A stretch of DNA of 64,000 nt from Spirochaetaceae bacterium. GTDB lineage: Bacteria; Spirochaetota; Spirochaetia; DSM-2461. Of this stretch, positions 20,283 through 42,933 are shown piece by piece. The stretch spans positions 288,001-352,000 of the forward strand of contig JAOPTT010000009.1 of NCBI GenBank assembly GCA_051531975.1, given 5' to 3'. The position numbers and the translations under genes were made by a program. Numbering within the stretch: the first letter of the stretch is position 1; each line of letters starts with the position of its first letter. Under the pieces are notes generated by a model that saw nothing but the letters and a program-made list of their open reading frames with translations, was not told the origin of the DNA and made no database searches.

Positions 20283-22419
<2,137 letters not shown>

Positions 22420-22425
22420 TAACAG

Positions 22426-22467
22426 ACCCTGCTTTTGCAGGGGTTATTTTTTTATAAGTATATTATT
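22426..22467 (+). repeat. Left direct repeat / terminator hairpin of the outer insertion
   Basis: 38/42 identical to 42892-42933; first 17 bp (accctgcttttgcaggg) identical. Confidence 0.85.
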
Positions 22468-22595
22468 TATTCAATTTCATATCTAATAATATCTTCCACT
22501 TTTGGAACTGTGTTGTATGTCTTCACCCAATTACCATTTTGTTTGACTTCATATATTTTAAAAACAAATGGTATTCCTTTTGCAATAATAGTGTT
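22467..22595 (-). pseudogene. Detached C-terminal 42 codons of the M23 peptidase whose N-terminal part is at 41485-42024
   Basis: Reads NTIIAKGIPFVFKIYEVKQNGNWVKTYNTVPKVEDIIRYEIE*; joins in frame to ...HLHMQFMNSD when the inner elements are removed. Confidence 0.8.
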
Positions 22596-22711
22596 GGAAG
22601 GTCTTATTTCATTATTATTTAAAGCTATCAACTTTAGTTTTAAATGGGCTTAAATAGTGAAAAATTCCATAAACAAAATCAGTCCCGTGTGTTAAATTTG
22701 GAGATATTGTT
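22596..22711 (+). repeat. Conserved non-coding element end R1
   Basis: About 10 differences in 117 aligned positions versus 24605-24721; first 21 bp identical. Confidence 0.95.
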
Positions 22712-22779
22712 TTTAGGAAGCTTTAAATAATCAAATATGTTAGTGTTCTACTTTGTATGTAGCAGTATTATCAATTATG

Positions 22780-23991
22780 TTATTTAACTTCAAATCTTAT
22801 ATTTTCTAGAAGAAAATCATATAGATTTATATGTGTGATACCATCTTTTGATAGATCAATTTTATCCATGGTAATCAAATATTTTGGATATTGATCATTT
22901 ATTTTTAGAAGTGCATTCATCTCCCTTGCATATGTTCTTTCATCTAAAGCCGTCAGACTAACCTGAAAATATAATCTTTTATCTCCTTTAATAGCAATAA
23001 AATCTACCTCGGATGACATGTTTTTCCCAACAGTTACTTCATAACCTAATCGAAGTAACTGAAGATATACAATATTTTCTATAACATGTCCTAAATTACC
23101 ACTGCGATATCCTATGAGCCTGTTTCTAAGACCTGTATCAACGACATAGTATTTACCATTAGTTTTAAGACGTTCTTTTCCCCTAATATCATATCTCTCA
23201 CATTGATAAAGCATATGGGCATCACACATTAACTGTAGATAATTATCTACTGTGTCTGAGGTGATTTTATGTCCATGAGATATCATTGTATTTTTGATTG
23301 CATTGGCAGATGTATTATTACCAATATTTTCAAAAACAAACTTTGCTACTTTATAGAAAGCTCCTTCATCTCGAATCCTACCTCTTAGAATAATATCTCT
23401 AGTAAATATTGAATCAAATAATCCTGAAAGAATTGCCTCTACCAGTTCCTGCCCATTAGCTAAACTAACAGCGGGAAAAGATCCTACTAGAAGATACTCG
23501 TTAAAATGCTTCTCAACATTTTGTTCACTATATGATTTAAATTCTAAAAACTCTTTAAATGATAAGGGCAGAACTTTAATCTCTATATACCTACCTGAAA
23601 GATATGTAAGATGCTCCCCTGAAAACATTCTTGAATTTGAGCCAGTAACATATATATCAGCATTAAAACTTACTCTTAAACTATTAATAACTTTCGCCCA
23701 ATCATAGAGCTCTTGTACTTCATCAATTAGTAAATAGATTCTACTACTATCTTTCACTTTACCTTTTATGTAGTCATGTATGGATTTCTCATCTTTTAAA
23801 TCATCATTTAGATATTTTTCATAATTTATTTCAATGATCTGGCTTTCTTCTACACTCTGATCTATAAGATATTCTTTAAACAGAACAAGTAGAGATGATT
23901 TCCCTGATCGTCTAACACCAGTTATCACTTTAACAAAATCATTATCTTTATACTGAACCAGTTTATCTGTATATCTTGATCTCTTAATCAT
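22780..23991 (-). CDS. AAA+ ATPase with C-terminal DUF4143/restriction-endonuclease-like domain
   Basis: GVRRSGKS, LIDEVQ, TGSNS, LSGR, KYYVVDTGLR, IENIVY, EVDF..YFQV. Confidence 0.9.
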   Translation of the reverse strand: MIKRSRYTDKLVQYKDNDFVKVITGVRRSGKSSLLVLFKEYLIDQSVEESQIIEINYEKYLNDDLKDEKSIHDYIKGKVKDSSRIYLLIDEVQELYDWAKVINSLRVSFNADIYVTGSNSRMFSGEHLTYLSGRYIEIKVLPLSFKEFLEFKSYSEQNVEKHFNEYLLVGSFPAVSLANGQELVEAILSGLFDSIFTRDIILRGRIRDEGAFYKVAKFVFENIGNNTSANAIKNTMISHGHKITSDTVDNYLQLMCDAHMLYQCERYDIRGKERLKTNGKYYVVDTGLRNRLIGYRSGNLGHVIENIVYLQLLRLGYEVTVGKNMSSEVDFIAIKGDKRLYFQVSLTALDERTYAREMNALLKINDQYPKYLITMDKIDLSKDGITHINLYDFLLENIRFEVK

Positions 23992-24206
23992 AAGTACCTC
24001 ATTATTCTAACTATAACTTCAAAATCGACAGAAATCAATTATATTACGATCAGTAGTCGTAAAAAGAAATAGTATTGTCGTTTTTCATAGTAAAAACTAA
24101 GTATTTAATAATAAGATTAAGCAATGTTCAGGCCCAAATATATGGATATATTGCTGTAACAGTATAACAACAGAATTTTATTGGTTAAACATTTGATACT
24201 TAATGT

Positions 24207-24236
24207 TGATAATCCCTTACTTATAAGGAATTATCA
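24207..24236 (-). terminator. Hairpin downstream of ssb copy B
   Basis: tgataatccctta-ctta-taaggaattatca; conserved at 41088-41119. Confidence 0.75.
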
Positions 24237-24246
24237 TTATTAAAAG

Positions 24247-24598
24247 CTATACAGCTACGTCGATAACCTCTTCTTCTTTTACCACTACAGGAATTGGTTT
24301 AAACTCCACATGTTCAGCTACAACTTTTATCCTTGAATGAGGATTCTCAGATTCATCCACCCACCTGTCCTGTTTTAATCTTCCAACAACTCTAACACCT
24401 CTACCCTTGCAAAGATGTTTAAGGCAGCTCTCGGCTATTGTCGACCAAACTTCTATATCAAAGTAGGATACCTCTTTTACATAATCATCATCTTTCTTAT
24501 AACTTCTGTTAACAGCTATAGTAAAGTTACAGATAATAGTATCCTGGGGGGGTTCTTCTCTCTACAGGGTCTTTAACTAAATTTCCCTCTAACAACAT
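24247..24598 (-). pseudogene. ssb: Single-stranded DNA-binding protein, 5'-truncated and frameshifted (copy B)
   Basis: MLLEGNLVKDP...EVSYFDIEVW...KGRGVRVVGRLKQDRW...VAEHVEF; 352 nt versus 351 nt for copy A because of one extra base in a G7 run at 24546-24552. Confidence 0.92.
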
Positions 24599-24604
24599 AG
24601 AGTC

Positions 24605-24721
24605 GGAAGGTCTTATTTCATTATTTTTTAGAAGCTATCAAATTTAGTAAAAAATGGGCTTAAATAGTGAAAATTTCCATAAACAAAATCAGTCCCGTCT
24701 TTTTAATTTGGAGATATTGTT
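24605..24721 (+). repeat. Conserved non-coding element end R2
   Basis: Direct repeat of 22596-22711. Confidence 0.95.
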
Positions 24722-24973
24722 GCAATTTAAATATTATGCAATTGTCAGTCCCCAAACACTCCTACAAATAGTAGTTATTACAACATATTGATTATGAAAT
24801 ATTTTCATAAATAGATCTCCATATTATTTTTTATATATTAATTCAAAAAGGTGTATTTGATACGTCTGTACAGTTAGTAATATTTTACATTTTATTATTC
24901 CTGTTCCATATAATTAAAGAATCTATTGTGAATAACATATCATAAATATGTCCAGTAAACTGGTGGAATTCCG

Positions 24974-25866
24974 TTATATAAGTTTTTTCAACTCTTCTAT
25001 AGAAAAACCAGTGACTTTAGAAACAAAATCTAGTTCAGATCCTGCATTTAGAAGATTTCTAGCGATTTATTCCTTACCTTGATCTCTAGCATACTCCAAA
25101 GCTCACCTATCAGAAGCCACATCTTCTAAATATTTATTATATGCTCTCTGCTCTTTTGGAGTCATGGATATGTAGTCCAGCTTTTCACTCATCTCTTTTA
25201 TTCCCTTGGATTCAAATTCGTCCTCGACTCTGTGATTCTTTATGGAATAGATCCACTCATCTAAGGAGTCTTTTACCCTATTGTTAAAAATAGAGATGGA
25301 TATAACAAAGTACTCAGGAAAGATATTAATCTAATCTCTACTATTATTATAACCAACTAAGAAGTTACTGTCTATATTTATAGGTTCTCTACTGTGTAAT
25401 CTAGGCTGCATAGGCGAGCAGTAAACTTGTTTACGACCAGCTCAGAGAATTCTGTTTTACCATGATAGACATAATCTGAATGGGAATTACTACTTTTAGC
25501 TTCTACATCAAAATAGATTAGGCTTACAGAGTAGACTTTATTAACATAGGAATAATCCTCTCCAGATTTTATATTATCTGAAATATCCTTACTTGTTCCA
25601 AATAGTAACCTTTTAAAGTAGTTTTTTTCAGGAGCATACTGTATCTCTATTATCACATGTTCCCCTGAAGAGTTTTCTGCAATTAGATCTACCCTGTTAT
25701 ACTTAATATCCCGAGCATCCTGATTCCCCTCGCTCTCTAGAATATTAACAACTTTTATTTCTTCACCTAAAAGTGCTAATAAAAATCCTTCCAGTACTAC
25801 ATAGTTTACTTTATCCCTCAGGATATACTTTATTGCCCAATCAAAACTTACAATTTCTCTACTCAT
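24974..25866 (-). pseudogene. Rpn-family recombination-promoting nuclease / PD-(D/E)XK putative transposase, disrupted
   Basis: SFDWAIK, NRVD..IIEIQ; continues out of frame as NIFPEY..LDEWIY..IARNLL..VSKVTGFSIEEL with in-frame stops and frameshifts. Confidence 0.88.
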
Positions 25867-26059
25867 ACTAGGTTTATAGTGGTTCGTATCATATAAATTC
25901 AATTTAAAATCGATATATCTGGCTAAATTGATAACTAATTATATATCTTCAGAAAGCTGTATGTATGAAATTCAGTGCGTAATAATGGTTATTTGACTAA
26001 AGAACATTGGAATACTATTATACTGGATGGAACCCTGGAAGACGATCTTGTAAAAAGAC

Positions 26060-28489
26060 TTATTTAACGATTAACTCAATTTTTTTACCACAAAACACTA
26101 TTGTATTTTTAATTTTATTATTCATTACCACGTCTATTTTTATACTCATAGGCATTCCATTAAAGTCACCATTTCTATCATCAATTATTAAAGTACTACT
26201 TTTGTCATTCCATAAAATTCTGGTTATTGAATATCTATCTTTTTCATAATCATTACTCTTACCATCATCTTCATACATTAAAAATTCACCATCTGCATTT
26301 GGATAAATATGAATTTCATACCCTTCATTGGCCCTTTCATCTGCAAATTGGATTCCAGGTCTCATAGGAATTATTGATCCAGCTTTAATAAATATGGGCA
26401 TAACATCAATAGGTGTATCTACAACTAATTCGATTCCGCCTTTATAGTATTTATTTGTATAAAAATCATACCATCCACAACCTTCAGGAAGGTAGCAACT
26501 TATCTGCTTCTTAGTTGCTATTTCTACTCCACCAATGTCAAAATACATTGGTTTTGTTATTGGACAAACCATAATTGATTCACCCATCATAAATTGACTT
26601 TTTATAGTCCTGGCCTTTTCATCATGACTAAAATCAAATAGTAAGCTTCTCATTATGGTTTTATTAAAAAGTCTTACACTTCCGGCTATTGAATATATAT
26701 ATGGAATTAGTTTGTATCTGATATCTATGAATCTTTTAATAGAGTCATAAAACATATCTCCTTCCTCGCCAAAATTCCAAATTTCTCTTGGAGTATCAGT
26801 CCCGTGGGATCTAAACATAGGTAAAAAAGCACCCATTTGAATCCATCGCACATAAAGCTCACAATAGGCCGGATCGTCTATACCGTCTTCATAATCCCCT
26901 TTCCAAAACCAAAATTTATCAGAATTATCAGAACATTTACAACCTCTATTTCTCCAATTTTCTTTAACAACAAAGAAACCACCGATATCTAGAGTCCAAT
27001 ATGGATAACCTGAAAGTCCCATATTTAAACCTTCAACTATCTGTTTTTTCATGGTGTCATAGGTTGCAGTAATATCACCTGACCATAAAAAAGCTGAATA
27101 CTTTTGTGATGACGCATATCCGGAACGTGTTAGATTAACAACACGATTATTTTTAAAATCTTCAATTTGATTATTATATATACCCATTGAATGTACTAAT
27201 GGATATAAATTAGCCTGTTCACTTTTGAGATACTTTTTATGTTCTGTTCCAACAAGATAATATCTTTCCCGTGGCTTCCTTAATTGTGAACCGGTCCAGT
27301 CCGGACTACTAAATGGTTCTACAGAATCACACCACCATGAATCAAAACCTACATCGTATAACCCTTCTTTTGCCTGTTTCCAATATATTTTCCTAGCTTC
27401 TTTATCAAAAGCATCATACGTTGCATAATCAAATAATAGTTGGTCGTTTTTTATAAATTCATCATGATTTTCACAACCGGCGTTCATATTTGGCCAGATA
27501 GAAACCATGGTATGTGCATTCATTTTATGAATATTATCAATACACTCTTTTATATCCCCATAACGAGATTTATCAAGTATTTTATTCCCCCACTTACCAT
27601 CTTCCCAAGTATTCCAATCCTGTACTACACAATCTATAGGAACATTAAGCTCACGGTGTTTTGTAACAATATCTTCTAATTCTTTTGCAGAATAGTACTG
27701 TTCTTTTGATTGAATATAGCCAAAAACCCAACGTGGAAACATTGTAGCTTGACCTGTTAACTTTCTAAAACCATCAATTACATTATCTGGCTTTTCACCT
27801 GCAACAAAATAGTATTCCAAGTGTGGTATTGAATCACAAAACATATATGAATATGGTTTAGAATCATTAAAAATCATTAACGAGCCACAATCAAATAGCA
27901 TTCCATAGCCTGAATCAGATAAAAACATCGGCATTGGAATTCTCATATTATGTTGATATAAATACTGTGTTGTTCCTCTATAATTATATATACCCTCTTC
28001 ACCTTGTCCCAATCCATAAATACCCTCACCATCTTCAAACTCAAAATGAAGCTTTCCACTAAAAGCTTTATGTGTAATTTGTGGAATTAGGTTTCCTACA
28101 AAATTCCGTTCTCCATCTGGTGTTTTCACACGGTTTATAATTGGTTTATCACCGCCTGTGGAATATTCTAATATATCAATTTCATGTAATTCTCTCGATC
28201 CTTCTCTTAATAAACACTTACCATTTTCATCAAAATAACTAAGTTTTTTTGTATTCTTATTAAAAGAAACACTGAGTTCAGACATTTTAACAACAAGGTC
28301 AAATTCTGATTCAATAACATCAAAATCAACATTTATAAAACTATTATGATCAATAATTATGGATTCAGATTCACCAACTCTTTTTTTACTATATATAATT
28401 CGTATAATTTTTTTATTAACAGGTTGAACTTTTAAAATACCATGTTTCAAATAAATTGAAACTCCATTTTTTTCAACTTTATAATTCAT
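26060..28489 (-). CDS. GH31 glycoside hydrolase (alpha-xylosidase-like)
   Basis: YGLGQ, VVQDW, nucleophile region WWCDSVEP, WSGD, DIGGF, FRSHGTD. Confidence 0.92.
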   Translation of the reverse strand: MNYKVEKNGVSIYLKHGILKVQPVNKKIIRIIYSKKRVGESESIIIDHNSFINVDFDVIESEFDLVVKMSELSVSFNKNTKKLSYFDENGKCLLREGSRELHEIDILEYSTGGDKPIINRVKTPDGERNFVGNLIPQITHKAFSGKLHFEFEDGEGIYGLGQGEEGIYNYRGTTQYLYQHNMRIPMPMFLSDSGYGMLFDCGSLMIFNDSKPYSYMFCDSIPHLEYYFVAGEKPDNVIDGFRKLTGQATMFPRWVFGYIQSKEQYYSAKELEDIVTKHRELNVPIDCVVQDWNTWEDGKWGNKILDKSRYGDIKECIDNIHKMNAHTMVSIWPNMNAGCENHDEFIKNDQLLFDYATYDAFDKEARKIYWKQAKEGLYDVGFDSWWCDSVEPFSSPDWTGSQLRKPRERYYLVGTEHKKYLKSEQANLYPLVHSMGIYNNQIEDFKNNRVVNLTRSGYASSQKYSAFLWSGDITATYDTMKKQIVEGLNMGLSGYPYWTLDIGGFFVVKENWRNRGCKCSDNSDKFWFWKGDYEDGIDDPAYCELYVRWIQMGAFLPMFRSHGTDTPREIWNFGEEGDMFYDSIKRFIDIRYKLIPYIYSIAGSVRLFNKTIMRSLLFDFSHDEKARTIKSQFMMGESIMVCPITKPMYFDIGGVEIATKKQISCYLPEGCGWYDFYTNKYYKGGIELVVDTPIDVMPIFIKAGSIIPMRPGIQFADERANEGYEIHIYPNADGEFLMYEDDGKSNDYEKDRYSITRILWNDKSSTLIIDDRNGDFNGMPMSIKIDVVMNNKIKNTIVFCGKKIELIVK

Positions 28490-28536
28490 ATAATTAATCC
28501 CTTAATAACGACCTTATTCTTAATAATTAGTCTGTT

Positions 28537-28940
28537 TTATAAATCTTTCAAATATGGACTTCGATCTTCAACCAAAGTGAGCAAATTACTGACCTCTGAC
28601 CAACAGCTCCCATTGAACACACCACCAACACTACTTAATGTTTCCCAGGAGTATACCGGTCTTTCATCTGTAGACATATACTGGCTGATAGTCGAAGAAA
28701 TTTCCTTATACAGTTCAAGATACAAGACCTGCATCAACAAGGGCAGCGCTTGTTGATCCACCGACTCTAATATTTCCAGTTCCGGTATCTACAAACTGTC
28801 CGATTTGACCATACCGGCTGAATATATCTACAAACTCATCGACGCATTTTTTAGCTCCATAAATTCAAAATGTTTGAAGTGGGTAATAAAAACTAGAAAC
28901 TGCTTTTATATAAGGCTACAAGGTTAATTCCCAGTGACAT
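28537..28940 (-). pseudogene. Multiply deleted paralogue of the 33180-34964 gene
   Basis: Colinear blocks matching ~33200-33299, ~33400-33481 and ~33900-34032; probable RBS and ATG at 28940. Confidence 0.85.
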
Positions 28941-28959
28941 TATTTTCCTTATATAACCT

Positions 28960-30219
28960 CTATTTATCCCCGTTGAATTCTTTTACAGCATCTATAGCTG
29001 CAACAATGTTTTCAAGTGGGGTCTTTGCCTGTATATTATGTATGGCATTAAACACATAACCACCTTCTTTAGCAAATATTTCACATCTCTCCAGAACCTG
29101 GGTTCTAACCTGTTCAGGGGTTCCAAAAGGGAGAATGTTTTGTGTATCAACACCACCGCCCCAGAACACTACATCCTTTCCAAATTCACCTTTTAAAGCA
29201 TTTGCATCCATTCCTGTTGCAGACAGTTGTACGGGATTTAATATATCAAAGCCACTATCAATTAGATCCGGAACAAAAGATGCAATTGCCCCACAGCAGT
29301 GCTTAAAGGTTTTCCAGTTTGTATTGGCATGTATCCAGTCATTAATCTTTTTATAATGTGGTTTCCATAACTCCCTATATGTATCTATAGAACAGAATGT
29401 TCCATTTTGAGTTCCAAAATCTGTTCCACATACAAAAAATGCATCGATTTTATCACCAATTGCATTGTGAATCTTTTCGTAGTTTTTAATTCCAATTTCA
29501 GTCTGTTTTTCAAATAGTTCATAGATATATTCCGGTCTTAATGCTGTAGACATATACCACTCGGTTATATCCCTTATGCCTTTAGGGTTTTTTAACTGGG
29601 GTGCCGGCACACAGGCTATATCCCCCAATGATGTACCGGAGAAATTCCCAATTACACCTTTTCCTGTTGCAGAGGCTCTATCAGCTTCATTAATTAAAAA
29701 TTGTAAATCCTTATCACTTATAGGGCCGAACTCTTCAAGATTATCCTGAACATTCAGATTATCCTCATCAATTGGTTCCTGCCTGATTATCTCATCAAAA
29801 AAATGTCCACTTTTAGGCATTCTTCCACTTGGTCTGGCTGTTAAATCCCCCTGGGGATATAAAAGAGTATCCCCTTTATCATCTATTGTATAATTAAAAT
29901 CTTTTGAAACCAAAACTTTTAACCCATCATTCATAGTCCACTCTTTCCATGCTGTATTTGGAAAACCGAACCATGTATTTCTGGAATTTACTGCTGTAAC
30001 ATCAACACCTATAGCTTCCTGAAGATCCTCTTCCACTAATCCCAAACATTGATAAGGTTCGTAAACTTTTACAAGTTTTTTTTCCAGGCCATAATAATCC
30101 CTTAATTCTGCAACTATACTGGCATGAATACCTGTTACGGCAGTTCCTCCAAAGTCTATTGGAACTTTATCCGGTTGTTTATGGTTAAGACACGCTTGTA
30201 ATCTCTCTTTTGAATTCAC
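28960..30219 (-). CDS. Uroporphyrinogen decarboxylase/MtaA-CmuA superfamily protein
   Basis: GTDFGTQ, HCCG, LNPVQ, FWGGGVDTQ..PFGTPEQV, AIHNIQ. Confidence 0.88.
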   Translation of the reverse strand: MNSKERLQACLNHKQPDKVPIDFGGTAVTGIHASIVAELRDYYGLEKKLVKVYEPYQCLGLVEEDLQEAIGVDVTAVNSRNTWFGFPNTAWKEWTMNDGLKVLVSKDFNYTIDDKGDTLLYPQGDLTARPSGRMPKSGHFFDEIIRQEPIDEDNLNVQDNLEEFGPISDKDLQFLINEADRASATGKGVIGNFSGTSLGDIACVPAPQLKNPKGIRDITEWYMSTALRPEYIYELFEKQTEIGIKNYEKIHNAIGDKIDAFFVCGTDFGTQNGTFCSIDTYRELWKPHYKKINDWIHANTNWKTFKHCCGAIASFVPDLIDSGFDILNPVQLSATGMDANALKGEFGKDVVFWGGGVDTQNILPFGTPEQVRTQVLERCEIFAKEGGYVFNAIHNIQAKTPLENIVAAIDAVKEFNGDK

Positions 30220-30276
30220 TTTAATCTCCTTCTTATATTGTTAACATTTTGAAGTCACATCTATATTCTGCAGTCT

Positions 30277-33168: not shown

Positions 33169-33179
33169 ATAAATTCCCT

Positions 33180-34964
33180 TTACAACTGACTGTCAATATT
33201 TCTATGTGGATTTCTATTTTCAGCCAAAGTAAGCATATTACTGACCTCTGCCCAACAACTTCCATTGAACACACCACCAACACACCTTGATGTTTCCCAA
33301 TCAGATAAGTTGACACGTTCACATATAAATCCCTGGGGTAATTTCTCTCTGGGTACTTTTATACCGCTACTTCCATGAACGGTAGCGTCTTTGGGCACAT
33401 CCCATGAGTAAATAGGTCTCTCATCTGTGGACATATACTGGCTGATAGTCGAAGAAATTTCCTTATACAGTTCAAAATACATTTCCTCTCCAGTGAATTC
33501 ATACAACTTAATGAGACTGTCACCTGACAAAGTACATATACCTGGTGCAGAGTGTTTATTTTGCACATTGGCAAACACAGAACCGGTGCTTTTCATATCA
33601 AGCCTGATAAATTCAGAACCTTCAGGAAATTTATAGTTATAAGTAACCACCCAACTGCTGCAAAGATGTGCTGCACTCTGTGCATAAGATAACCATTTTG
33701 CTTCTCCTGTTACATCATATAATTCAACATAACTCTCCAACAATGCAAAGGCGCTTTCACTATCAGGACACTGAAGTATCTCAGCAGGACCACCTGTTGT
33801 AAAACCTTTGGACAAGTATGTTGTATAATAGCCATCTGCAACTAATTTTGCAGTCTCCAGATACTTTTCATCACCAAAGTATTGATAGGCACTAGCGAGG
33901 CCTGCACCAACCAGGGCACCGCTTGTTGATCCTCCGACTCTAATCTCTCCCGTTTCCACATCAACATACTGTCCAATTTGACCATACCGATTAAAAACAT
34001 CTACAAACGCGTCGGCGCATTTTCTTGCACCTTCAATGAATGCATCAGGAATCTCTTCCATAATACTGAAGTGTTTAAAAAGGAAATAAAGTACATCGGC
34101 AGATCGTCTAGTCAGAGTAAATCCATCCGTACCTTCAACACCAAACCCATCGTGAACCACCGAACCATCTTCCGTTGTATTTGCGTAGAAAAAACCACTT
34201 TTACCCTGATTCTCGAAAACATGTTCCAAGGTTTTTATACCTCTTTCATATTCAAGTTTCCCACCTAATTTCATCATTGCATAACTGGATATTGCACCTC
34301 CAGTCCAGCCACTTTGCCATGATAACAGTGTCGAACCTGGAACATCAACTCCGTAAAATCCTTTTTCCTCATACCAGTTCATGGTATTATACTTATCAAG
34401 TTGAATTCTGATCTGTTCATTTCTCGGAAGAACATTAGGTAGTTCATCATCTAATCCCATAAGCTTTCTATTCTTGAAAAATATAGCAAAGAACTCCACT
34501 ATTGAATGACACTCTTCATTTATGACTTTATAGGGTATTTCCGCTTCTTTATCATGCCATTCATCATTATTTACAACCATCTTAGGCCAGACATACTTGT
34601 ACTTTCTCATAGCTGGGTAACTTAGTTGTATGCAGCCTTTTTCATAGGCTATACCTAGATTTTCTCCATCTATTTCCTGTACTGTAAAAACAAACAAACA
34701 TCTGTTATTGGACGGAGTCCATATACCAACGCAAGGTACTGAGACATCCCCTGTGGTCACTTCTATTACCCCACTTCCATCCATATTCAACCTTGGAACA
34801 TCTGTAATAAATGCAGGCATTACAATTTTTTGCTCATCCTGGTTGTACATTGGTGGATAGTTTTTCTTTAATGCTTCAAATTTATTACCATTATAACAAC
34901 ATGCAGGAAATAAAACATATTCATTGCTGTCGTACTCTTCGACATCTATTTTCACTATACTCAA
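33180..34964 (-). CDS. Uncharacterised protein, probable (alpha/alpha)-barrel carbohydrate-active enzyme
   Basis: Repeated 'L..AY..GDEKYL..A' and 'LYDVTGEAKWL' helical-hairpin motifs; operonic with the ABC importer. Confidence 0.6.
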   Translation of the reverse strand: MSIVKIDVEEYDSNEYVLFPACCYNGNKFEALKKNYPPMYNQDEQKIVMPAFITDVPRLNMDGSGVIEVTTGDVSVPCVGIWTPSNNRCLFVFTVQEIDGENLGIAYEKGCIQLSYPAMRKYKYVWPKMVVNNDEWHDKEAEIPYKVINEECHSIVEFFAIFFKNRKLMGLDDELPNVLPRNEQIRIQLDKYNTMNWYEEKGFYGVDVPGSTLLSWQSGWTGGAISSYAMMKLGGKLEYERGIKTLEHVFENQGKSGFFYANTTEDGSVVHDGFGVEGTDGFTLTRRSADVLYFLFKHFSIMEEIPDAFIEGARKCADAFVDVFNRYGQIGQYVDVETGEIRVGGSTSGALVGAGLASAYQYFGDEKYLETAKLVADGYYTTYLSKGFTTGGPAEILQCPDSESAFALLESYVELYDVTGEAKWLSYAQSAAHLCSSWVVTYNYKFPEGSEFIRLDMKSTGSVFANVQNKHSAPGICTLSGDSLIKLYEFTGEEMYFELYKEISSTISQYMSTDERPIYSWDVPKDATVHGSSGIKVPREKLPQGFICERVNLSDWETSRCVGGVFNGSCWAEVSNMLTLAENRNPHRNIDSQL

Positions 34965-35037
34965 GTTATTCTTCCTTTATTGATATAACTGAAATAATTC
35001 TTAAAAGAGGTTTCCCTCTTTTAAGGCTGTTAATTAC

Positions 35038-36573
35038 TTAATTTGAATAGAATGCATCGATCTGCTGCTGTGCCTCTTTTACAATAGCATCACCACCTGA
35101 TTTTCTAATTTTATCCAGAAACGTTTTTAATTCCGCTTCAGTATTCTCCAGGAAAATACCACACTCAAAAGCTGCGGAATATTCATCTATAATTGTACTT
35201 ACTGCGGACATTTCTGCTTTGACCGGATTTGAATCAAATGTAAATCCCAAAACAGAAGATGGGGTTGCAGAATCATTAAGTTCAGCTATAGCAGGACGCG
35301 TAAGTTTAGATTCGCCTTCCATTAAGTATGATTCCATATTTCCCGGTCCATATACCCATCTAACATCCGGATTATATCTATCAGTACCAACTTGAGTTTT
35401 TACAATAGTATTATCTCCAGCCATATTGTAATGAACACCTTCTATACCATAATTGATCAGGTTAAGAAAATCCTTATCACTGTAAAGAAGTTCAAAAAAC
35501 TGAATTGCTTTTTCAGGGTTTTTAGACGTCCGACTGATAGCAGTCAATGTTGCTGTTGATGAACTAGTCATAATAGTAGGATTATTAGGAGCTTTAAACA
35601 TCTCACTGTAGGTTCGGCTACCGTTGGATTCTGCAAGCGTAAGAGAGCCAGGGTGAGGATAGAAATTCCCATCCAACATCATTCCCACTTTACCTAAACC
35701 ATATAAATCACCTATGCCTGGCAATGCTATGGCATCTTCTTGTATATATCCTTTTTGCGCCCAATCAGCCATTAATAATACATAGTTCCTGAACTCATCG
35801 GATTTAAACTGATTCACTACTGTTCTAGTGTTATCTGCCAGTCTTACATAACCTGGAGCAGTCCTGCCTACAACATCATCAAATCCATTTGTCACCAACA
35901 ATTTATTCCAGTTAGCAAATCCAGGTTCACCACCGGCAGCTCCCCAGGCATAAACTTCCGGGTATTCACTTTTTACAAACTCAAGATAAGGTTCAAAATC
36001 TTTCAGACTACTGATTTTATTTATGTCAAAATCAATCTTTTCTATAGCTTTATCCATAATAGAAGCTGGAGCTCTCCACGCATTGGCCATATAGTTCATC
36101 TGCCAATTTAACATTCCATAAGTTTTCCCTTTAATTTTTGCTACATTTCTAAATTTCTGAGGTACAGTATCCGCGTATGCAGGTGCATATTTAGAAATTA
36201 AATCGTCTAGAGGTAAAAAAGCCCCTTTATCAACGTTTCCAGAGTAACTATTAGACCAGTTTCCAGTCCATGCCAAATCGTAAGGTTCTCCCGAAGCTGT
36301 AACCACCTGCATTTTTTGATCATAATCTCCCCATCCAATGTGAACAATTTTAAGCGTAGCTCCGATTTTTTCAGATAGAATAGAATTAATTTTATCCTCT
36401 ACAAGTCCCTGATCCAACTGCTCTCCGGGACCAATATGGTAGTACACCAATTCTACTAAATCGTCTTTTGTACTCTCAGTTTCACCACTAGCCCAACCCA
36501 TTGCCGGTAATAACAGAATTAATAACACTGCCAATACCATTTTGAAATTCATTCCTTCTTTGTTTTTAATCAC
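35038..36573 (-). CDS. Oligosaccharide ABC transporter substrate-binding protein (LplA/DUF3502-like)
   Basis: Signal peptide, SGEPYDL, NYGIEGVHY, LGFTFD; GGAGG RBS before GTG 36573. Confidence 0.9.
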   Translation of the reverse strand: MIKNKEGMNFKMVLAVLLILLLPAMGWASGETESTKDDLVELVYYHIGPGEQLDQGLVEDKINSILSEKIGATLKIVHIGWGDYDQKMQVVTASGEPYDLAWTGNWSNSYSGNVDKGAFLPLDDLISKYAPAYADTVPQKFRNVAKIKGKTYGMLNWQMNYMANAWRAPASIMDKAIEKIDFDINKISSLKDFEPYLEFVKSEYPEVYAWGAAGGEPGFANWNKLLVTNGFDDVVGRTAPGYVRLADNTRTVVNQFKSDEFRNYVLLMADWAQKGYIQEDAIALPGIGDLYGLGKVGMMLDGNFYPHPGSLTLAESNGSRTYSEMFKAPNNPTIMTSSSTATLTAISRTSKNPEKAIQFFELLYSDKDFLNLINYGIEGVHYNMAGDNTIVKTQVGTDRYNPDVRWVYGPGNMESYLMEGESKLTRPAIAELNDSATPSSVLGFTFDSNPVKAEMSAVSTIIDEYSAAFECGIFLENTEAELKTFLDKIRKSGGDAIVKEAQQQIDAFYSN

Positions 36574-36624
36574 AAAGTCCTCCAAATTAAATTATATTTT
36601 AACAGATTTTTACAAAATCTGTTA

Positions 36625-37539
36625 TTATCCTTTTACCGAGCCCATAGTTAATCCTTTAACAAAATATTTTTGAAAAAATGGAAATATAACTAACATAGGA
36701 GCCACTGCAGTAAGGCACATTGCCATACGGGCAGATTCTGTTGGGATACTGTCTGCTGATACAGAAGCACCCATCATGATCATTTTTTTAAGCGCATCAA
36801 TATTTGCCAACATACTTTGCAGCATGTGGGGTAACGTTATTAACATCCGGTCATCTATAAAGAGCATTCCAGTCCACCAGGTATCATTCCAGTATCGTAA
36901 AACCTGAAATAGTCCCAATGTTGCTATTGCAGGCTTGGAAAGAGGAATTACAAGAGAAAACAGTATTCTTATTTCCGATGCACCATCAATGTAAGCGGAT
37001 TCGGAAAGTTCCTTTGGTATCTGCTGAAAGAAGGTTTTTATAAGTAAGATATTAAATGCTTGAAGAGCATATGGAATGATATGCGCCCATATTGTATTTT
37101 TTAAATGCAGATAATTTACCATCAACATATATGTAGGTACTAATCCTCCGTTAAACAGCATTGTAAAGAATACAAAAAAAGAGAAAAAACGCCGGTATCG
37201 AAATGTAGGTAGGGATAGTGGATAAGCTATAAGTATGGATAGTATTAGGGAGATTACAGTACCTAAAACTGTTACAACCATAGAAACTATATAACTATCA
37301 ATTATCCGCTCTGGTGATTTAAATATATAACTAAAGGCTTCTAAATTAAATTGTCTTGGTATTATCTTATAGCCATGTTCATATATATAAGAATCTGATG
37401 AAAATGAGATTGAAATAACAGCTATTAACGGAATTATACATAACAGTGATATAGCTAGAAGTACTATATTCACAATCATCCTTGATAATGGTGATATACT
37501 ATTTAGTTTTCTTTTTTGGTTTACTTTAAAATAACGCAC
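36625..37539 (-). CDS. Carbohydrate ABC permease (LplC-like)
   Basis: FNGGLVPTY, ESAYIDGAS (EAA loop), FQKYFVKGLT. Confidence 0.93.
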   Translation of the reverse strand: MRYFKVNQKRKLNSISPLSRMIVNIVLLAISLLCIIPLIAVISISFSSDSYIYEHGYKIIPRQFNLEAFSYIFKSPERIIDSYIVSMVVTVLGTVISLILSILIAYPLSLPTFRYRRFFSFFVFFTMLFNGGLVPTYMLMVNYLHLKNTIWAHIIPYALQAFNILLIKTFFQQIPKELSESAYIDGASEIRILFSLVIPLSKPAIATLGLFQVLRYWNDTWWTGMLFIDDRMLITLPHMLQSMLANIDALKKMIMMGASVSADSIPTESARMAMCLTAVAPMLVIFPFFQKYFVKGLTMGSVKG

Positions 37540-38443
37540 TGTCTTTCTCCCATTTATTAACTACACCATTAGCTATCAGAATCGTTATAAGTCCGACAAT
37601 AGACTGATATAAACCAGCAGCTGTTGCCATTCCTAAATCTCCGGTAACTTTTAAAGAACGATAAACATATGTGTCCATGACATCAGTCGTCTTATACAAT
37701 ATTCCAAGATTTCTGGGCACATTATAGAAAAGACCAAAGTCAGCATAAAATATGCGGCCAATACTGAGTAAAACCATAATAGTAATAAGAGGGCGTATGT
37801 GTGGTAAAGAGATGTATATTGTTTGCTTCCATCGACCTACACCATCAATTGCAGCAGCTTCATAAAGTTGTTTGTCTACCGATATAAGTCCGGCGTAAAA
37901 GATAATGCACCAGTAGCCTATGTTTTTCCAGGTATTAAAAAAGATAAGAATCATTGGCCAGGATTTTGGATTTGTGTACCAGTTTACAGAATCGATATTA
38001 AAAAACAGTAATAACTGATTTAAAATTCCATAACGGGAACTTAAAAAACTATAAGCCATATAACTGACAACTACCCATGAGATATAGTATGGAAGAAACA
38101 AAGCTGTCTGATAAAATTTAATTGCTTTTTTACTAATTACTTCATTTAGTAATAAAGCCAGTGCCACACCACCTACTGTATTGCATATAATAAACAAAAC
38201 ATTATATCCAATAGTGTTTCGGGTAATTCTTAAGGCTGTATCTGTTTTGAAAAAGAATTCAAAGTTTTTGAATCCTACCCAGGGGCTTTTCAAAAATCCC
38301 AGATCGTAACGAAAATCCTTAAATGCCAGAAAAATACCAGCCATTGGTAGATAGTTATATACCAACATAACTGTGAATGGAATAATAAGGATTAAGAGTA
38401 ATTGTTTGTCTTGGGCTCTCCCAATTAGTTTTTTCTTATTCAT
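37526..38443 (-). CDS. Carbohydrate ABC permease (LplB-like)
   Basis: SPWVGFKNF, YEAAAIDG, DVMDTYVY. Confidence 0.93.
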   Translation of the reverse strand: MNKKKLIGRAQDKQLLLILIIPFTVMLVYNYLPMAGIFLAFKDFRYDLGFLKSPWVGFKNFEFFFKTDTALRITRNTIGYNVLFIICNTVGGVALALLLNEVISKKAIKFYQTALFLPYYISWVVVSYMAYSFLSSRYGILNQLLLFFNIDSVNWYTNPKSWPMILIFFNTWKNIGYWCIIFYAGLISVDKQLYEAAAIDGVGRWKQTIYISLPHIRPLITIMVLLSIGRIFYADFGLFYNVPRNLGILYKTTDVMDTYVYRSLKVTGDLGMATAAGLYQSIVGLITILIANGVVNKWEKDSALF

Positions 38444-38609
38444 GTAATAATTGTATGGCTGGCAAACTTAAACGGACAAGAGCCAAAATGCAGTGTTTTA
38501 TGTCAAAAAACTCATAATGTAAAAGTTTAAAAGTATCAAAAAGCAAAGATGCAGGATAATAATTAAAGATTCTCTTTGCCTGCAGTATTTCTTGATCTAT
38601 GATTAAAAT

Positions 38610-40892
38610 ATGCCTGTAAGAAATCAAAGTTATATGTTTAAACTCTTTTTCTCATTTGTGAGTCTAGTGACATTTATAGTACTTGTTAATTCTATTACTC
38701 AACTATTTCTATCAATAACAGAAGCAGAAAAAATAATGCATAATGCTGAACAACATAAAATGGAATTGATAAGTTACAGTGTTGACTATATGAATCAATC
38801 CACCAGGACTCTTATTCAAAATATGTTTTCAGATAATAATGTAAAGTTTTTACTGTCAACCAATGACCATGATTATTTAAAAGTACATAATTTTTTCAAG
38901 AATACTAAAAAAATTATAGCCAGCAGCCCCGAAGTACATTCTATATATCTATATAACTCAGTTCTTGATAACTACTATTCTACAACAAAGGATTTTTCCA
39001 GTACATCTGAAGATTTTTTTGATGAAGAAATTAATACATATATGAATCCTGGGAACACAATATTTTTAAAACCAATTTTCCGCAGACTCGCTGGTGGATT
39101 AGAAGTTTACTCATACATTTTATATGTTGATGTTTTTGAAAATATTAAATCCAGTGCAATTATTATAAATATTAAAGCTGATTATATAAAAAATATTATA
39201 GGTGGAATGCACTCAACCCTCTCATTAAATACTAAAATAATAATGACTAATAAAGAAGGTTATTTAATGGGGCCTGGAGAGAAATTGGAAGATATCACAT
39301 TTATAAAAAGGATTTTGGAAAGTAATAAAAAAAAGTCATACTTTATTGACACTTATCAGAATAAAAAAACATTAATAAGTTATATTTTAAAAGAAGATAC
39401 GGAATGGTTTTTTATATCACTGACCCCCTATAAGAGCATCACCGACTCTTTTAAAGTATTAAAAGTATTAATTTCACTTTCAGGGTTATTAATCCTTATT
39501 ATTGGTACTTTTTTTTCTGCACTTCTGGCAAAAAAGTTATATCTTCCATTAAAGGTTATTACAGAAACAGTAAGTGCTATAACTGGAAAAAATAGGTCAG
39601 GAAAAGATGAATTCACTTTAATAAAAGAGACCCTATCCGATTCTACAGCAAGGGCTGCACTTTTTGATTCATATAAACAAAAAAATAGCCAAACTCTTCA
39701 GACAGAGCTAATGAGAAAGCTTTTGAATCATACTGTGTCTGTTTCCGATGAAGTTATTAAGAAATGGGATGATTTAGAAATAGAGCTTGATTCCGAAAAA
39801 CCTTTTCATTTAATTCTAATTAATATAGATGATTTTTATGATCTTTCTTATAAACTAAGTTTTAATGATATGAACCTGTTATGGTTTTCTATAAATTCCC
39901 GATTTAGACAGGATCTAAGTTTCGATTTTAAATCACTATTTGTAAATATGAATGAAAGAGTATCCTGTATTATCGTCCAGAACAATAGTGAACCAAATAA
40001 CGGTGTTGAGGTTAAGTTAAGAAAGTTCCTCTCACTAATTCAAAATAAAATTTCAGAGGAGTTAGGTGTATCCATTACCATTACTATTTCAGATATTGGT
40101 CAAAGTTTATTATCACTGCCAAAGCTTTATTCTGAAACTTTGAATATGGCTGAATATCGATTATTAATAGGGCAGGGAAGCATAATAGAAAAAAAAGATA
40201 AAACTTTACAGACAACAGGATATCGTTTCCCTATTGAAGAGATACATAATTTAAATAAATTTATAAAAAACAGAGACTTTATTAATGCAAAAAAATCATA
40301 TTTATATATTGAAGAGAAATTAATAAATAATGAACCTTTTCAAATCCGTGTCGATTTAATACGTGTGATATCTTCTCTGTTTGATACAATTAAAACTTTG
40401 GAAATAAACAGCATTCTGGAATTTAATCTGGATTTCCCACAATTTATTGATGACTTAAACCGTCTGGATACAATGGGTCAAATTAGAAGCCTGTTTAATA
40501 ACTTTTTTGATAATATTGAGAATAAGTTTAATATTATTAAATTATCTAAAGTGGATGAGAATGTTGAAAAGATAAAAAAAATAATTGAACATGAATATTC
40601 AGATAAAGAGTTATCTACAAAAAGCATAGCTGACAAATTAAACATGTCTACCGGGTATATACGTCAACTATTTAAAGAATTTATGGGTGTTTCTATTTCA
40701 GAATATATTTTCTCAATAAGATTAGAAAAATCAGCAGAACTTATATCTATGCATAAACAATCATTTAAAGATGCAATGTACAGTGTTGGAGGGGATAATT
40801 ACCGGTATTTCTTAAGACGTTTTAAGGAGTATTTCGGACTGACTCCTAATGAATATCTTAAAAAAAATAATCAGGAATTTGTAGATAGATGA
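38610..40892 (+). CDS. Membrane-anchored AraC-family regulator (YesS-like)
   Basis: Two TM segments around a sensor domain, C-terminal AraC HTH; divergent from the ABC operon. Confidence 0.85.
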   Translation: MPVRNQSYMFKLFFSFVSLVTFIVLVNSITQLFLSITEAEKIMHNAEQHKMELISYSVDYMNQSTRTLIQNMFSDNNVKFLLSTNDHDYLKVHNFFKNTKKIIASSPEVHSIYLYNSVLDNYYSTTKDFSSTSEDFFDEEINTYMNPGNTIFLKPIFRRLAGGLEVYSYILYVDVFENIKSSAIIINIKADYIKNIIGGMHSTLSLNTKIIMTNKEGYLMGPGEKLEDITFIKRILESNKKKSYFIDTYQNKKTLISYILKEDTEWFFISLTPYKSITDSFKVLKVLISLSGLLILIIGTFFSALLAKKLYLPLKVITETVSAITGKNRSGKDEFTLIKETLSDSTARAALFDSYKQKNSQTLQTELMRKLLNHTVSVSDEVIKKWDDLEIELDSEKPFHLILINIDDFYDLSYKLSFNDMNLLWFSINSRFRQDLSFDFKSLFVNMNERVSCIIVQNNSEPNNGVEVKLRKFLSLIQNKISEELGVSITITISDIGQSLLSLPKLYSETLNMAEYRLLIGQGSIIEKKDKTLQTTGYRFPIEEIHNLNKFIKNRDFINAKKSYLYIEEKLINNEPFQIRVDLIRVISSLFDTIKTLEINSILEFNLDFPQFIDDLNRLDTMGQIRSLFNNFFDNIENKFNIIKLSKVDENVEKIKKIIEHEYSDKELSTKSIADKLNMSTGYIRQLFKEFMGVSISEYIFSIRLEKSAELISMHKQSFKDAMYSVGGDNYRYFLRRFKEYFGLTPNEYLKKNNQEFVDR

Positions 40893-41087
40893 ATCTCCGA
40901 ACTGACAATAAATTACCGCCAAAAAATATTTCAGTAATTTCATATTCTTTTAACATACCGATTCTGTATGTATGCTACTTCTAAAATCATTGCTTAATCT
41001 AATCGAGTTCACTCTCTCTTATCTCATCAACAGGAATTAAATTATTGCAAAGATTGTACTAATCTGACAAGAAAATCAGACTTGAAA

Positions 41088-41119
41088 TTGATAATCCCTT
41101 ACATATAAGGAATTATCAA
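41088..41119 (-). terminator. Hairpin downstream of ssb copy A
   Basis: ttgataatccctta-cata-taaggaattatcaa. Confidence 0.75.
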
Positions 41120-41127
41120 TTTAAAAA

Positions 41128-41478
41128 TTATACTGCTACGTCGAGAACCTCTTCCTCTTTTACAGTATTTGCTAAGGTTTTAAACTCCACATGTTCCGTA
41201 ACTACTTTTATCCTAGAGTGTGGATTCTCGATTTCATCTACCCACCTATCCTGTTTAAGCCTTCCAACAACTCTAAACCCTCTACCCTTACAAAGATGTT
41301 TAAGACAACTTTCAGCTATTGTGGACCAGACTTCTATATTAAAGTAGGATACCTCTTTTACATAATAATCATCTTTTTTATAACTTCTGTTAAAAGCAAT
41401 TGTGAAATTACAGATAATTGTATCCTGGGGAGTTCTTCTCTCTACAGGGTCTTTAACTAAATTTCCCTCTAACAACAT
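41128..41478 (-). pseudogene. ssb: Single-stranded DNA-binding protein, 5'-truncated (copy A), in frame with the upstream M23 fragment
   Basis: OB-fold SSB motifs; about 50 differences in 351 nt versus copy B; no RBS of its own. Confidence 0.85.
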
Positions 41479-42024
41479 ATCGTTATCACTATTCATAAAT
41501 TGCATATGCAAATGTGGCATTGTTGAATTCCCCGAATGCCCTAACTGTCCTATTGCATCATGTACTTTTATCTGCTGCCCAACTTTTACATTTACAGAAC
41601 CTTTTCTTAAGTGTTCTAATAATGCATATAGATTTTCTTGCACCTTTATCATTACATAATTACCGGTTACTAATTCTGGTGGTATACTATTTTTCATAAA
41701 ACCTTTGGTAACTTTTATGGTATTGATGAGATCTTTAAATATATTTACAGGATTCCTTTCGTTATTATCATTTTCTATGCGAATAACTTCACCATTAACT
41801 GGAGAATAAATGGTTTGGCCCCATCCATAGAAATCATCTAATTCCAATCCTTTTATTAAATACTGGAAGAAACTTTTACGATATGGCTTTTTGTTATTTT
41901 GTATCATCGCGAAGTCTATCGCATATTCTTCGCCAAACTTTGATGTCCCATGACTTGGAACTTTTGATCCAGGTGTGTTTGGTGATATATAAATCCCTTG
42001 TAAGGGAAAAGAAACAATGAGCAT
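41128..42024 (-). CDS. Chimeric ORF: M23 peptidase N-terminal 180 aa fused to SSB (298 aa)
   Basis: PNTPG..VPSHGT, YAIDF, GNYV, EHL, GHSGNSTMPHLH, then MLLEGNLVKDP; likely start ATG 42024. Confidence 0.8.
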   Translation of the reverse strand: MLIVSFPLQGIYISPNTPGSKVPSHGTSKFGEEYAIDFAMIQNNKKPYRKSFFQYLIKGLELDDFYGWGQTIYSPVNGEVIRIENDNNERNPVNIFKDLINTIKVTKGFMKNSIPPELVTGNYVMIKVQENLYALLEHLRKGSVNVKVGQQIKVHDAIGQLGHSGNSTMPHLHMQFMNSDNDMLLEGNLVKDPVERRTPQDTIICNFTIAFNRSYKKDDYYVKEVSYFNIEVWSTIAESCLKHLCKGRGFRVVGRLKQDRWVDEIENPHSRIKVVTEHVEFKTLANTVKEEEVLDVAV

Positions 42025-42184
42025 ATTTATACCTATATCCTTTTCATCTGATAATACTTTACTATATTTAAGATCTCTGCAGTAAGAACACAGTATTTCG
42101 TAGTTTGTTGAGTTTTTTGTCATTGTACACTTGTATTAGAAAACACGTTAACTTCATTACTTTATAAACAAGAGAGGAACAAAT

Positions 42185-42787: not shown

Positions 42788-42891
42788 ATACTGGACTATT
42801 CTTTAAGGGATCGGTACTTTTCATGTACAACATCACATAACACTCTATCTCTAGTAGAAAGTAGAATACGAGGATAACTTATAAAAAACTA

Positions 42892-42933
42892 ACCCTGCTT
42901 TTGCAGGGTCTATTATTTTATAAGTAAATTATT
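42892..42933 (+). repeat. Right direct repeat / terminator hairpin, overlapping the purA 3' end
   Basis: 38/42 identical to 22426-22467. Confidence 0.85.

Follow-up and report, generated by a model that had tools for sequence, protein, structure and literature searches.

In a 64,000-nucleotide stretch of a Spirochaetaceae genome (the genome under study, G000; contig C9, positions 288001-352000; hereafter the window), we identified a tandem array of two units that interrupts an M23 peptidase gene. Each unit starts with ssb′, which runs from codon 7 to the stop codon of ssb2, a short gene that is the second ssb of spirochaetes, and finishes with a non-coding end termed R. The unit ends very probably follow the attachment-site (att) chemistry of serine integrases. 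Judged from sequence, R would be the phage-type (P) arm and ssb′ the host-type downstream arm of a large serine recombinase (LSR) that targets codon 7 of ssb2, so that the att-site function of both ends is a prediction. The units themselves are likely to be helper-borne, cis-mobilised cassettes, resembling cis-mobilizable elements (CIMEs), that were left behind after precise excision of the helper.

The layout was checked with open reading frames (ORFs), repeats, Pfam families and reading of the sequence. On the minus strand, the order agrees with that in the initial annotation, namely the M23 5′ part, ssb′ A with a hairpin, a glycan cluster, an Rpn pseudogene, R2, ssb′ B with a hairpin, an AAA_14/DUF4143 gene, R1 and the M23 3′ part. 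The two-unit array is real, but its boundaries lie at 22590-41478 instead of 22596-41479, and the units measure 16,880 and 2,009 bp from core to core rather than 16,875 and 2,004 bp. The common non-coding end was likewise recognised correctly but reaches 6 nt beyond its proposed terminus, up to an AT core, and the size of ~116 bp was too short: R spans ~320 bp in unit 1 and in a third unit, with the last 123 bp common to all three units. The identities estimated by hand, about 86% for ssb′ and about 91% for R, were reproduced at 86.1% over 403 bp (ssb′ plus hairpin, A versus B) and 90.4-90.8% over 120-125 bp (R1 versus R2). The reported bias towards third codon positions also held, as the first 300 nt of ssb′ A and B differ 7, 1 and 26 times at codon positions 1, 2 and 3, respectively. 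As claimed, no match to a recombinase, transposase or relaxase Pfam family was found, whether among the 10 long internal ORFs of the units or among the 16 short ORFs in or at them.

The expectation of further copies was borne out by the third unit (2,167 bp, G000:C1:220323-218156), which consists of ssb′, a hairpin, a HicAB-like pair and R and interrupts a CPBP/Rce1-like gene lying on the opposite strand. The cargo, described as unrelated between the two units, is not wholly so with regard to the third: units 1 and 3 both hold remnants of an rve-type transposase gene and of a YjbR gene. The broader proposal of one family of non-autonomous, cargo-variable units with precise, site-specific ends that stack in tandem is upheld.

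The five junctions (three in the window and two at the C1 unit) were aligned on ssb codon 7. An AT core, the start of that codon, is present in 5/5, and at every junction the two bases to the left of AT track the left partner and the two to the right track the right partner. R terminates in a sequence that repeats ssb codons 8-11 in inverted orientation; the best dyad centre coincides with AT in 7/9 arm combinations, with up to 10 of 15 pairs matched. A 2-bp core within dyad arms is the pattern of serine recombinases (PMC3783163). Across the join, the spacing of M23 is unchanged in all 109 homologues that matched the pattern (10 of 119 did not match it), and the M23 3′ piece matches 116/119 homologues; therefore, no bases were duplicated or lost. 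The reading frame of ssb′ A is continuous with M23, giving a 331-aa M23-SSB fusion ORF (41128-42123, minus strand) that is catalogued as one protein and is probably a by-product of an in-frame crossover. An insertion sequence (IS) or composite transposon does not fit these observations: the ends are ssb′ and R, and there are neither IS copies nor a target duplication.

Both interrupted genes carry ATGAAT 18 nt ahead of the core, in the same register as the ssb start. Under a matrix built from six native ssb2 starts, the empty M23 site ranks 334th and the empty CPBP site 5,721st of the 1.23 million AT-core 38-mers, the matrix and the core having been picked after the data were seen. ATGAA lies at -23 in R versus -18 in the target, and a 5-bp shift of a distal motif is described between the attP and attB sites of LSRs (PMC3783163).

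The truncated ssb had been noted as a unit end; this holds, but the end is not arbitrary, corresponding to the predicted downstream arm of the integration target. G000 retains its own ssb2 (C2:331975-331589), intact, empty and 73-77% identical to the three ssb′ copies, which share 89-91% mutual identity and group in a single clade (support 0.995) that excludes native alleles. Their closest native allele is that of G001 (77-79%); for ssb′ A, identity is 73% to G000 ssb2, 79% to G001 and 89% to the other two units. This identity pattern and the separate clade therefore point to another species of the same genus as the donor. Furthermore, ssb′, hairpin and ATPase gene of unit 2 match the native G001 ssb2 locus at 84% over 1,856 bp. 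At the core position, G000 ssb2 has CT and not AT; among native ssb2 genes, codon 7 starts with AT in 133/154 and with CT in 7/154. CT at the native core would block ligation, which may explain why the cassettes occupy pseudo-sites.

The start of ssb is interrupted by LSR-bearing elements in several relatives. In the class-mate G075, a 39-kb prophage with terminase, portal and a 516-aa LSR (L412:1483-3033) interrupts ssb at codon 7. Compared with the three R arms in fixed register, the right end of this prophage reaches 48/72, a score attained by 145 of 10.9 million G000 24-mers and by 0/154 native ssb2 starts (maximum 37). The left arm of this prophage is a separate, non-ssb sequence without a significant match in G000; because it is not ssb, R|ssb′ would be an attR-type site and a unit would run from host arm to phage arm. 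Two further LSR lineages interrupt the same gene at codons 8-10, and their ends score 22 (G061) and 18 (Sphaerochaeta) against the R arms, which is no match. The G061 lineage (L130) is a 32-kb element with a 498-aa LSR inserted at codon 8, and the Sphaerochaeta group is a 336-aa LSR family with a 176-bp right end, present in records titled Sphaerochaeta or Pleomorphochaeta and in G333. In that family, 31 right-end junctions (41 loci entered, some redundant) lead 14 times into ssb, 16 times into the left end of the next element and once elsewhere.

Among 34 LSR loci scanned, an ssb 5′ stub adjoined one (G075), and 8 of the 163 ssb matches in L123-L276 lacked the usual start, with truncations only in L130 and L189. 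Close relatives of the G075 LSR were found neither in 10 other genomes of its family nor among viral contigs; its best phage records are ~25% identical, and five proteins reach 36-48%. SSB genes have been reported among the target classes of LSRs (7 clusters of targets against 0 in the background, p 0.013, false discovery rate 0.065; PMC10083194), and neither Spirochaet* nor Sphaerochaeta occurs in the portion of that paper's supplements searched. As separate observations, the right end of the Sphaerochaeta LSR family gives the split ssb a new in-frame start (L359, L361, L365, 6913 onward), another way to rescue ssb, and in L396 (G025:C30) an LSR gene directly follows the 5′ part of recQ.

Units without integrases also occur in relatives. 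One G028 contig (same family) carries an intact ssb, 2.7 kb of cargo and an R motif|ssb′ junction, and another contig carries an ssb′ remnant, 8.5 kb of cargo and again R motif|ssb′. Both R motifs lie directly ahead of ssb codon 7 (58 and 59/72), and the ssb′ copies are 92-97% identical to the host gene; the G028 array is interrupted by IS66. G024 and G062 hold truncated ssb copies after cargo, with the R motif displaced or absent. In the Sphaerochaeta record L359, the order is an intact LSR, R|ssb′, HipBA, a short R|ssb′ and trxA, so that an integrase-less unit of 2.9 kb, built to the same plan, sits directly behind a helper. Tandem arrays are seen in the window, G028, G333 and L359. By BLASTN, R had no match outside G000 among 61 genomes searched; a 17-mer scan of the genome-contig collection gave 72 stretches, none with extended R similarity, and these were counted as chance. 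Of the five 15-mer matches outside G000, three did not lie beside ssb and were dropped as chance; the junction pattern itself gave two non-ssb chance matches among genome contigs and none among viral contigs. Elsewhere, L341:7735-13832 (G273) contains two full-length ssb2 copies that share 52 upstream bases and flank toxin-antitoxin cargo, without an R motif, and at G000:C6:150725-157843 an 858-bp duplicated 3′ part of a comM-like gene flanks cargo and rve remnants, a locus that we read as another gene-restoring insertion.

These layouts can be accommodated by a series of standard LSR reactions. A helper, either an LSR prophage or another element, would reside at ssb in tandem with a cassette, and recombination of attL with the distal attR would release both as one composite circle with an internal attR. 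The circle would then enter G000 and integrate by attP × pseudo-attB, and a later attL × internal attR reaction would remove the helper precisely, leaving X|ssb′-cargo-R|Y. As X|ssb′ would again look like an ssb start, or attB, a further cassette could stack at the left, unit 1 thus being placed before unit 2; ssb′ A has an open frame, and the displaced ssb′ B is decayed. Were the same steps to take place at a native ssb, they would yield an intact donor-type gene, cargo and a truncated host copy, as laid out in G028, and the G001 layout would be the native-ssb outcome after loss of the right end.

Several observations weigh against this reading. The cognate enzyme was not found: PF07508 is absent from G000 (0/1 genome), where a profile search gave only two small resolvases; no LSR was found in G001, G024 or G028; and a G075-like LSR is present in 0/37 genomes of the family. 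The G075 prophage comes from a different family and shares only its terminal 24 nt, and the L359 composite involves another LSR lineage with another R and another crossover. The junction pattern is confined to 2/401 class genomes (G000 and G028), the 15-mer R motif alone is no commoner than expected by chance (8 matches, against 9 for the reversed control), and in G024 the motif is displaced by 1 nt with a background score. The CPBP site is a modest look-alike with thousands of equals, and the apparent ATGAA shift depends on a motif of just 5 nt that is not mirrored on the right arm. In G001, a hairpin and then the ATPase gene follow the native ssb2 with neither R nor a left-over ssb′. A second ssb2 copy in G000 (C6:632906) is empty despite its AT core and good left arm, which blocking by CT does not account for. 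Finally, contigs of run X1 contain no circle or empty-site joint, although contigs cannot show absence. Nor can an empty site be read as DNA, because three genus-mates have no intact close M23 orthologue and their nifU/purA neighbours differ.

The initial annotation proposed that the units are mobilised in trans from an R|ssb′ circle. Such a route could operate but would require attR × attB, whereas mobilisation in cis with a helper requires standard reactions only. Under the same LSR chemistry, the circle junction would be a working attP of dedicated gene-restoring cassettes, either with the first ~46 nt of ssb′ turned into a P′ arm or with an integrase of relaxed directionality. The near-invariance of those nucleotides (0-1 differences among the three copies in the first 46 nt versus 26-34 in the following 255; p 0.001-0.04) speaks for it, as do the recurrence of helper-less units in G000 and G028 and the single clade of ssb′. 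However, attB × attR (3:1 arms) gives almost no recombination even with a hyperactive phiC31 integrase (PMC2475636), ssb′ has no distal motif at the P position, and the left arm of G075 is separate and not ssb; overall, we regard self-movement in trans as rather unlikely. A tyrosine recombinase of the Xer or Tn916 type, tolerating mismatched coupling sequences, is a still weaker candidate. The 11-bp inverted arms 6 bp apart have the geometry of dif-type sites, and G000 encodes four tyrosine recombinases over the cut-off, one of them an integron integrase; XerC/D, the C6 integrase and the integron integrase would be the candidates. Yet the spacer splits centrally at 5/5 junctions instead of being inherited whole, the right junctions lack G|TT, R is unlike the C8 attC repeats, and the sole recombinase found attached to the arm motif is an LSR, which together make this option improbable.

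About equally improbable, if not slightly more so, is the idea that the units represent chromosomal segments of a relative, consisting of ssb and its neighbours and acquired by homologous or illegitimate recombination or by duplication, with R incidental. The R-less match of unit 2 to the native G001 locus fits this idea, as do the extra ssb′ copies of G028 and G333 (92-99% identical to the host's own gene) and other cargo blocks in the genus that are flanked by duplicated host terminators, and the tandem itself could stem from homologous recombination. By contrast, the M23 and CPBP insertions overlap by 2-3 nt only and entail no base loss, and the break falls at the identical base in all three R ends and all three ssb′ starts, so that for the two pseudo-site insertions this explanation is largely refuted. 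That the array is a mis-assembly of repeats is very remote. Contigs in the style of short-read assemblies do end within ssb′ repeats, but the copies are merely 86-91% identical and the M23 halves stand on both sides of the array in correct order and frame. Depth in the X1 contigs (possibly the source, and so not independent) is flat at 42-53 outside repeats, and X1 pieces span the R1|M23 and R2|ssb′ junctions and extend 29 letters beyond M23|ssb′.

Table 1 Features of the array in the window (positions counted from the first nucleotide of the window).
Feature	Position	Strand	Remarks
M23 peptidase gene, 5′ part	41479..42123	-	PF01551; last 18 nt = predicted pseudo-attB left arm, ATGAA at -18 as in the ssb start
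Crossover core AT, left junction M23|ssb′ A	41477..41478	-	2 bp
ssb′ A	41128..41478	-	Foreign ssb2 allele, codon 7 to stop; open
Hairpin 3′ of ssb′ A	41082..41125	-	Terminator-like; self-match
rve-type transposase gene, 5′-end remnant	40890..41078	+	Common to the C1 unit
Glycan cargo	26060..40892	-	Pfam: ABC transporter, GH127-like, F5/8-beta-helix, URO-D-like, GH31; AraC regulator on +
YjbR/MmcQ gene remnant	25991..26066		Common to the C1 unit
Rpn (PD-(D/E)XK) pseudogene	24975..25902	-	PF12784; TIGR01784 under cut-off; frameshifts
R2, non-coding right end of unit 1	24599..24921	-	Terminal 24 nt = predicted P-type arm
Core AT, internal junction R2|ssb′ B	24597..24598	-	2 bp; predicted attR-type site
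ssb′ B	24248..24598	-	Frameshifted after nt 46; hairpin 24200-24245 next
AAA_14/DUF4143 ATPase gene	22780..23991	-	PADLOC candidate family PDC-S01
R1, non-coding right end of unit 2	22590..22711	-	Predicted P-type arm
Core AT, right junction R1|M23 3′ part	22588..22589	-	2 bp
M23 gene, 3′ part	22467..22589	-	Last 40 codons; matches 116/119 homologues

No Rfam family was found in window positions 21000-44500. Within the glycan cluster, three repeats of 80-91% identity between 28552-28864 and 33204-34037 represent a decayed partial copy of a GH127-like gene. A 50-bp terminator-like direct repeat (86%; 22418-22467 and 42884-42933) lies on either side of a stretch that comprises the M23 gene, the array and a gene of 200 aa with no Pfam family. 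This stretch sits between purA and nifU, and the M23 gene may have been inserted as a block in its own right; the nifU/purA neighbourhoods of genus-mates provided no empty site of it. The C6 copy of ssb2, which is full-length, belongs to a tyrosine-integrase island (G000:C6:592333-633268) with restriction and ArdC/ParB-like genes. In G001, a toxin-antitoxin-like pair immediately upstream of ssb2 lies between the copies of a duplicated 89-bp porin terminator (L114:4538-5473). The two small resolvases of G000 (C1:52969-53559 and C10:276604-277194) are 87% identical, and each lies beside a run of unrelated cargo genes; they are unrelated to R, their loci sharing their own gene region alone, without R. 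The integron integrase (G000:C8:31741-32976; TIGR02249, 386 bits) is followed downstream (L441) by an array of ~110-135-bp attC-like repeats.

The architecture had been described as unlike anything recognised, but it is not unprecedented: CIMEs with tandem accretion (PMC5704250) and SSB genes as LSR targets (PMC10083194) are both on record. The units resemble CIMEs in lacking a functional integrase, relaxase or conjugation gene, in carrying predicted att-type sites at both ends around 2-17 kb of cargo that includes carbohydrate genes, in stacking in tandem, and in that transfer is expected solely in composite with a helper (PMC5704250, PMC7563491). Described CIMEs derive from integrative and conjugative or integrative and mobilizable elements and retain attL and attR (PMC5704250, PMC7563491), whereas the left end of the units is ~350 bp of the target gene, the ssb body, and the sites are of serine-integrase type. 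Moreover, the autonomous relative is a prophage, which is also the sole helper observed to carry this arm, and no helper adjoins the array, which occupies pseudo-sites. With LSR prophages on the A118/LI model, the units have in common the 2-bp core, the dyad arms and the use of pseudo-attB sites (PMC3783163, PMC10083194). Unlike such prophages, they have neither an integrase nor a P′ arm, and at the native site the gene would be restored rather than disrupted; the 2-bp core is shared without target duplication, and no cognate LSR was found in the element or the genome, the G075 enzyme being the only candidate.

Staphylococcal cassette chromosomes (SCC) and pseudo-SCC elements are LSR-type systems with ccr genes and insertion at rlmH, and they include ccr-less members and composite arrays that regenerate the target. 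Compared by description, the units differ in their ssb-like target, in the absence of any ccr/PF07508 gene from G000, and in repeating a whole gene body instead of a short direct repeat. They are also akin to integron cassettes in being integrase-less, cargo-variable and stackable, and G000 has an integron integrase; however, they are multi-gene, reach 17 kb and show neither an attC structure nor a G|TT crossover, and R gave just 12-59-nt AT-rich matches to the C8 array region, none of them to its repeat family. Literature searches, with TIGER/Islander, ProBord and most subscription papers outside their coverage, returned no paper on ssb-targeted cassettes in spirochaetes. As a speculative proposal, and one we regard as rather unlikely as a whole, spirochaetes might use serine-integrase chemistry to operate a cassette system akin to integrons, with the ssb body as a working recombination arm. 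Each insertion would rebuild the gene and the landing site, any passing ssb-targeting phage integrase would excise, shuffle and re-insert cassettes in trans by way of attR-type circles, and the change from AT to CT in the host ssb core would confer native-site immunity and divert cassettes to look-alike genes.

Collectively, our findings identify the ssb2 start as a landing site that at least three serine-integrase lineages have in common across Spirochaetia. The natural att pairs, together with pseudo-sites of this kind, provide test material for directionality and core-mismatch immunity, and the LSRs of G075 and Sphaerochaeta are candidate integration tools for a phylum that has few. Because no mobility gene is left behind, island finders that need an integrase miss such cassettes. 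Such delivery and stacking can involve cargo as diverse as toxin-antitoxin pairs, a candidate defence ATPase and a glycan-use cluster of 15 kb, none of it accompanied by a remaining mobility gene.

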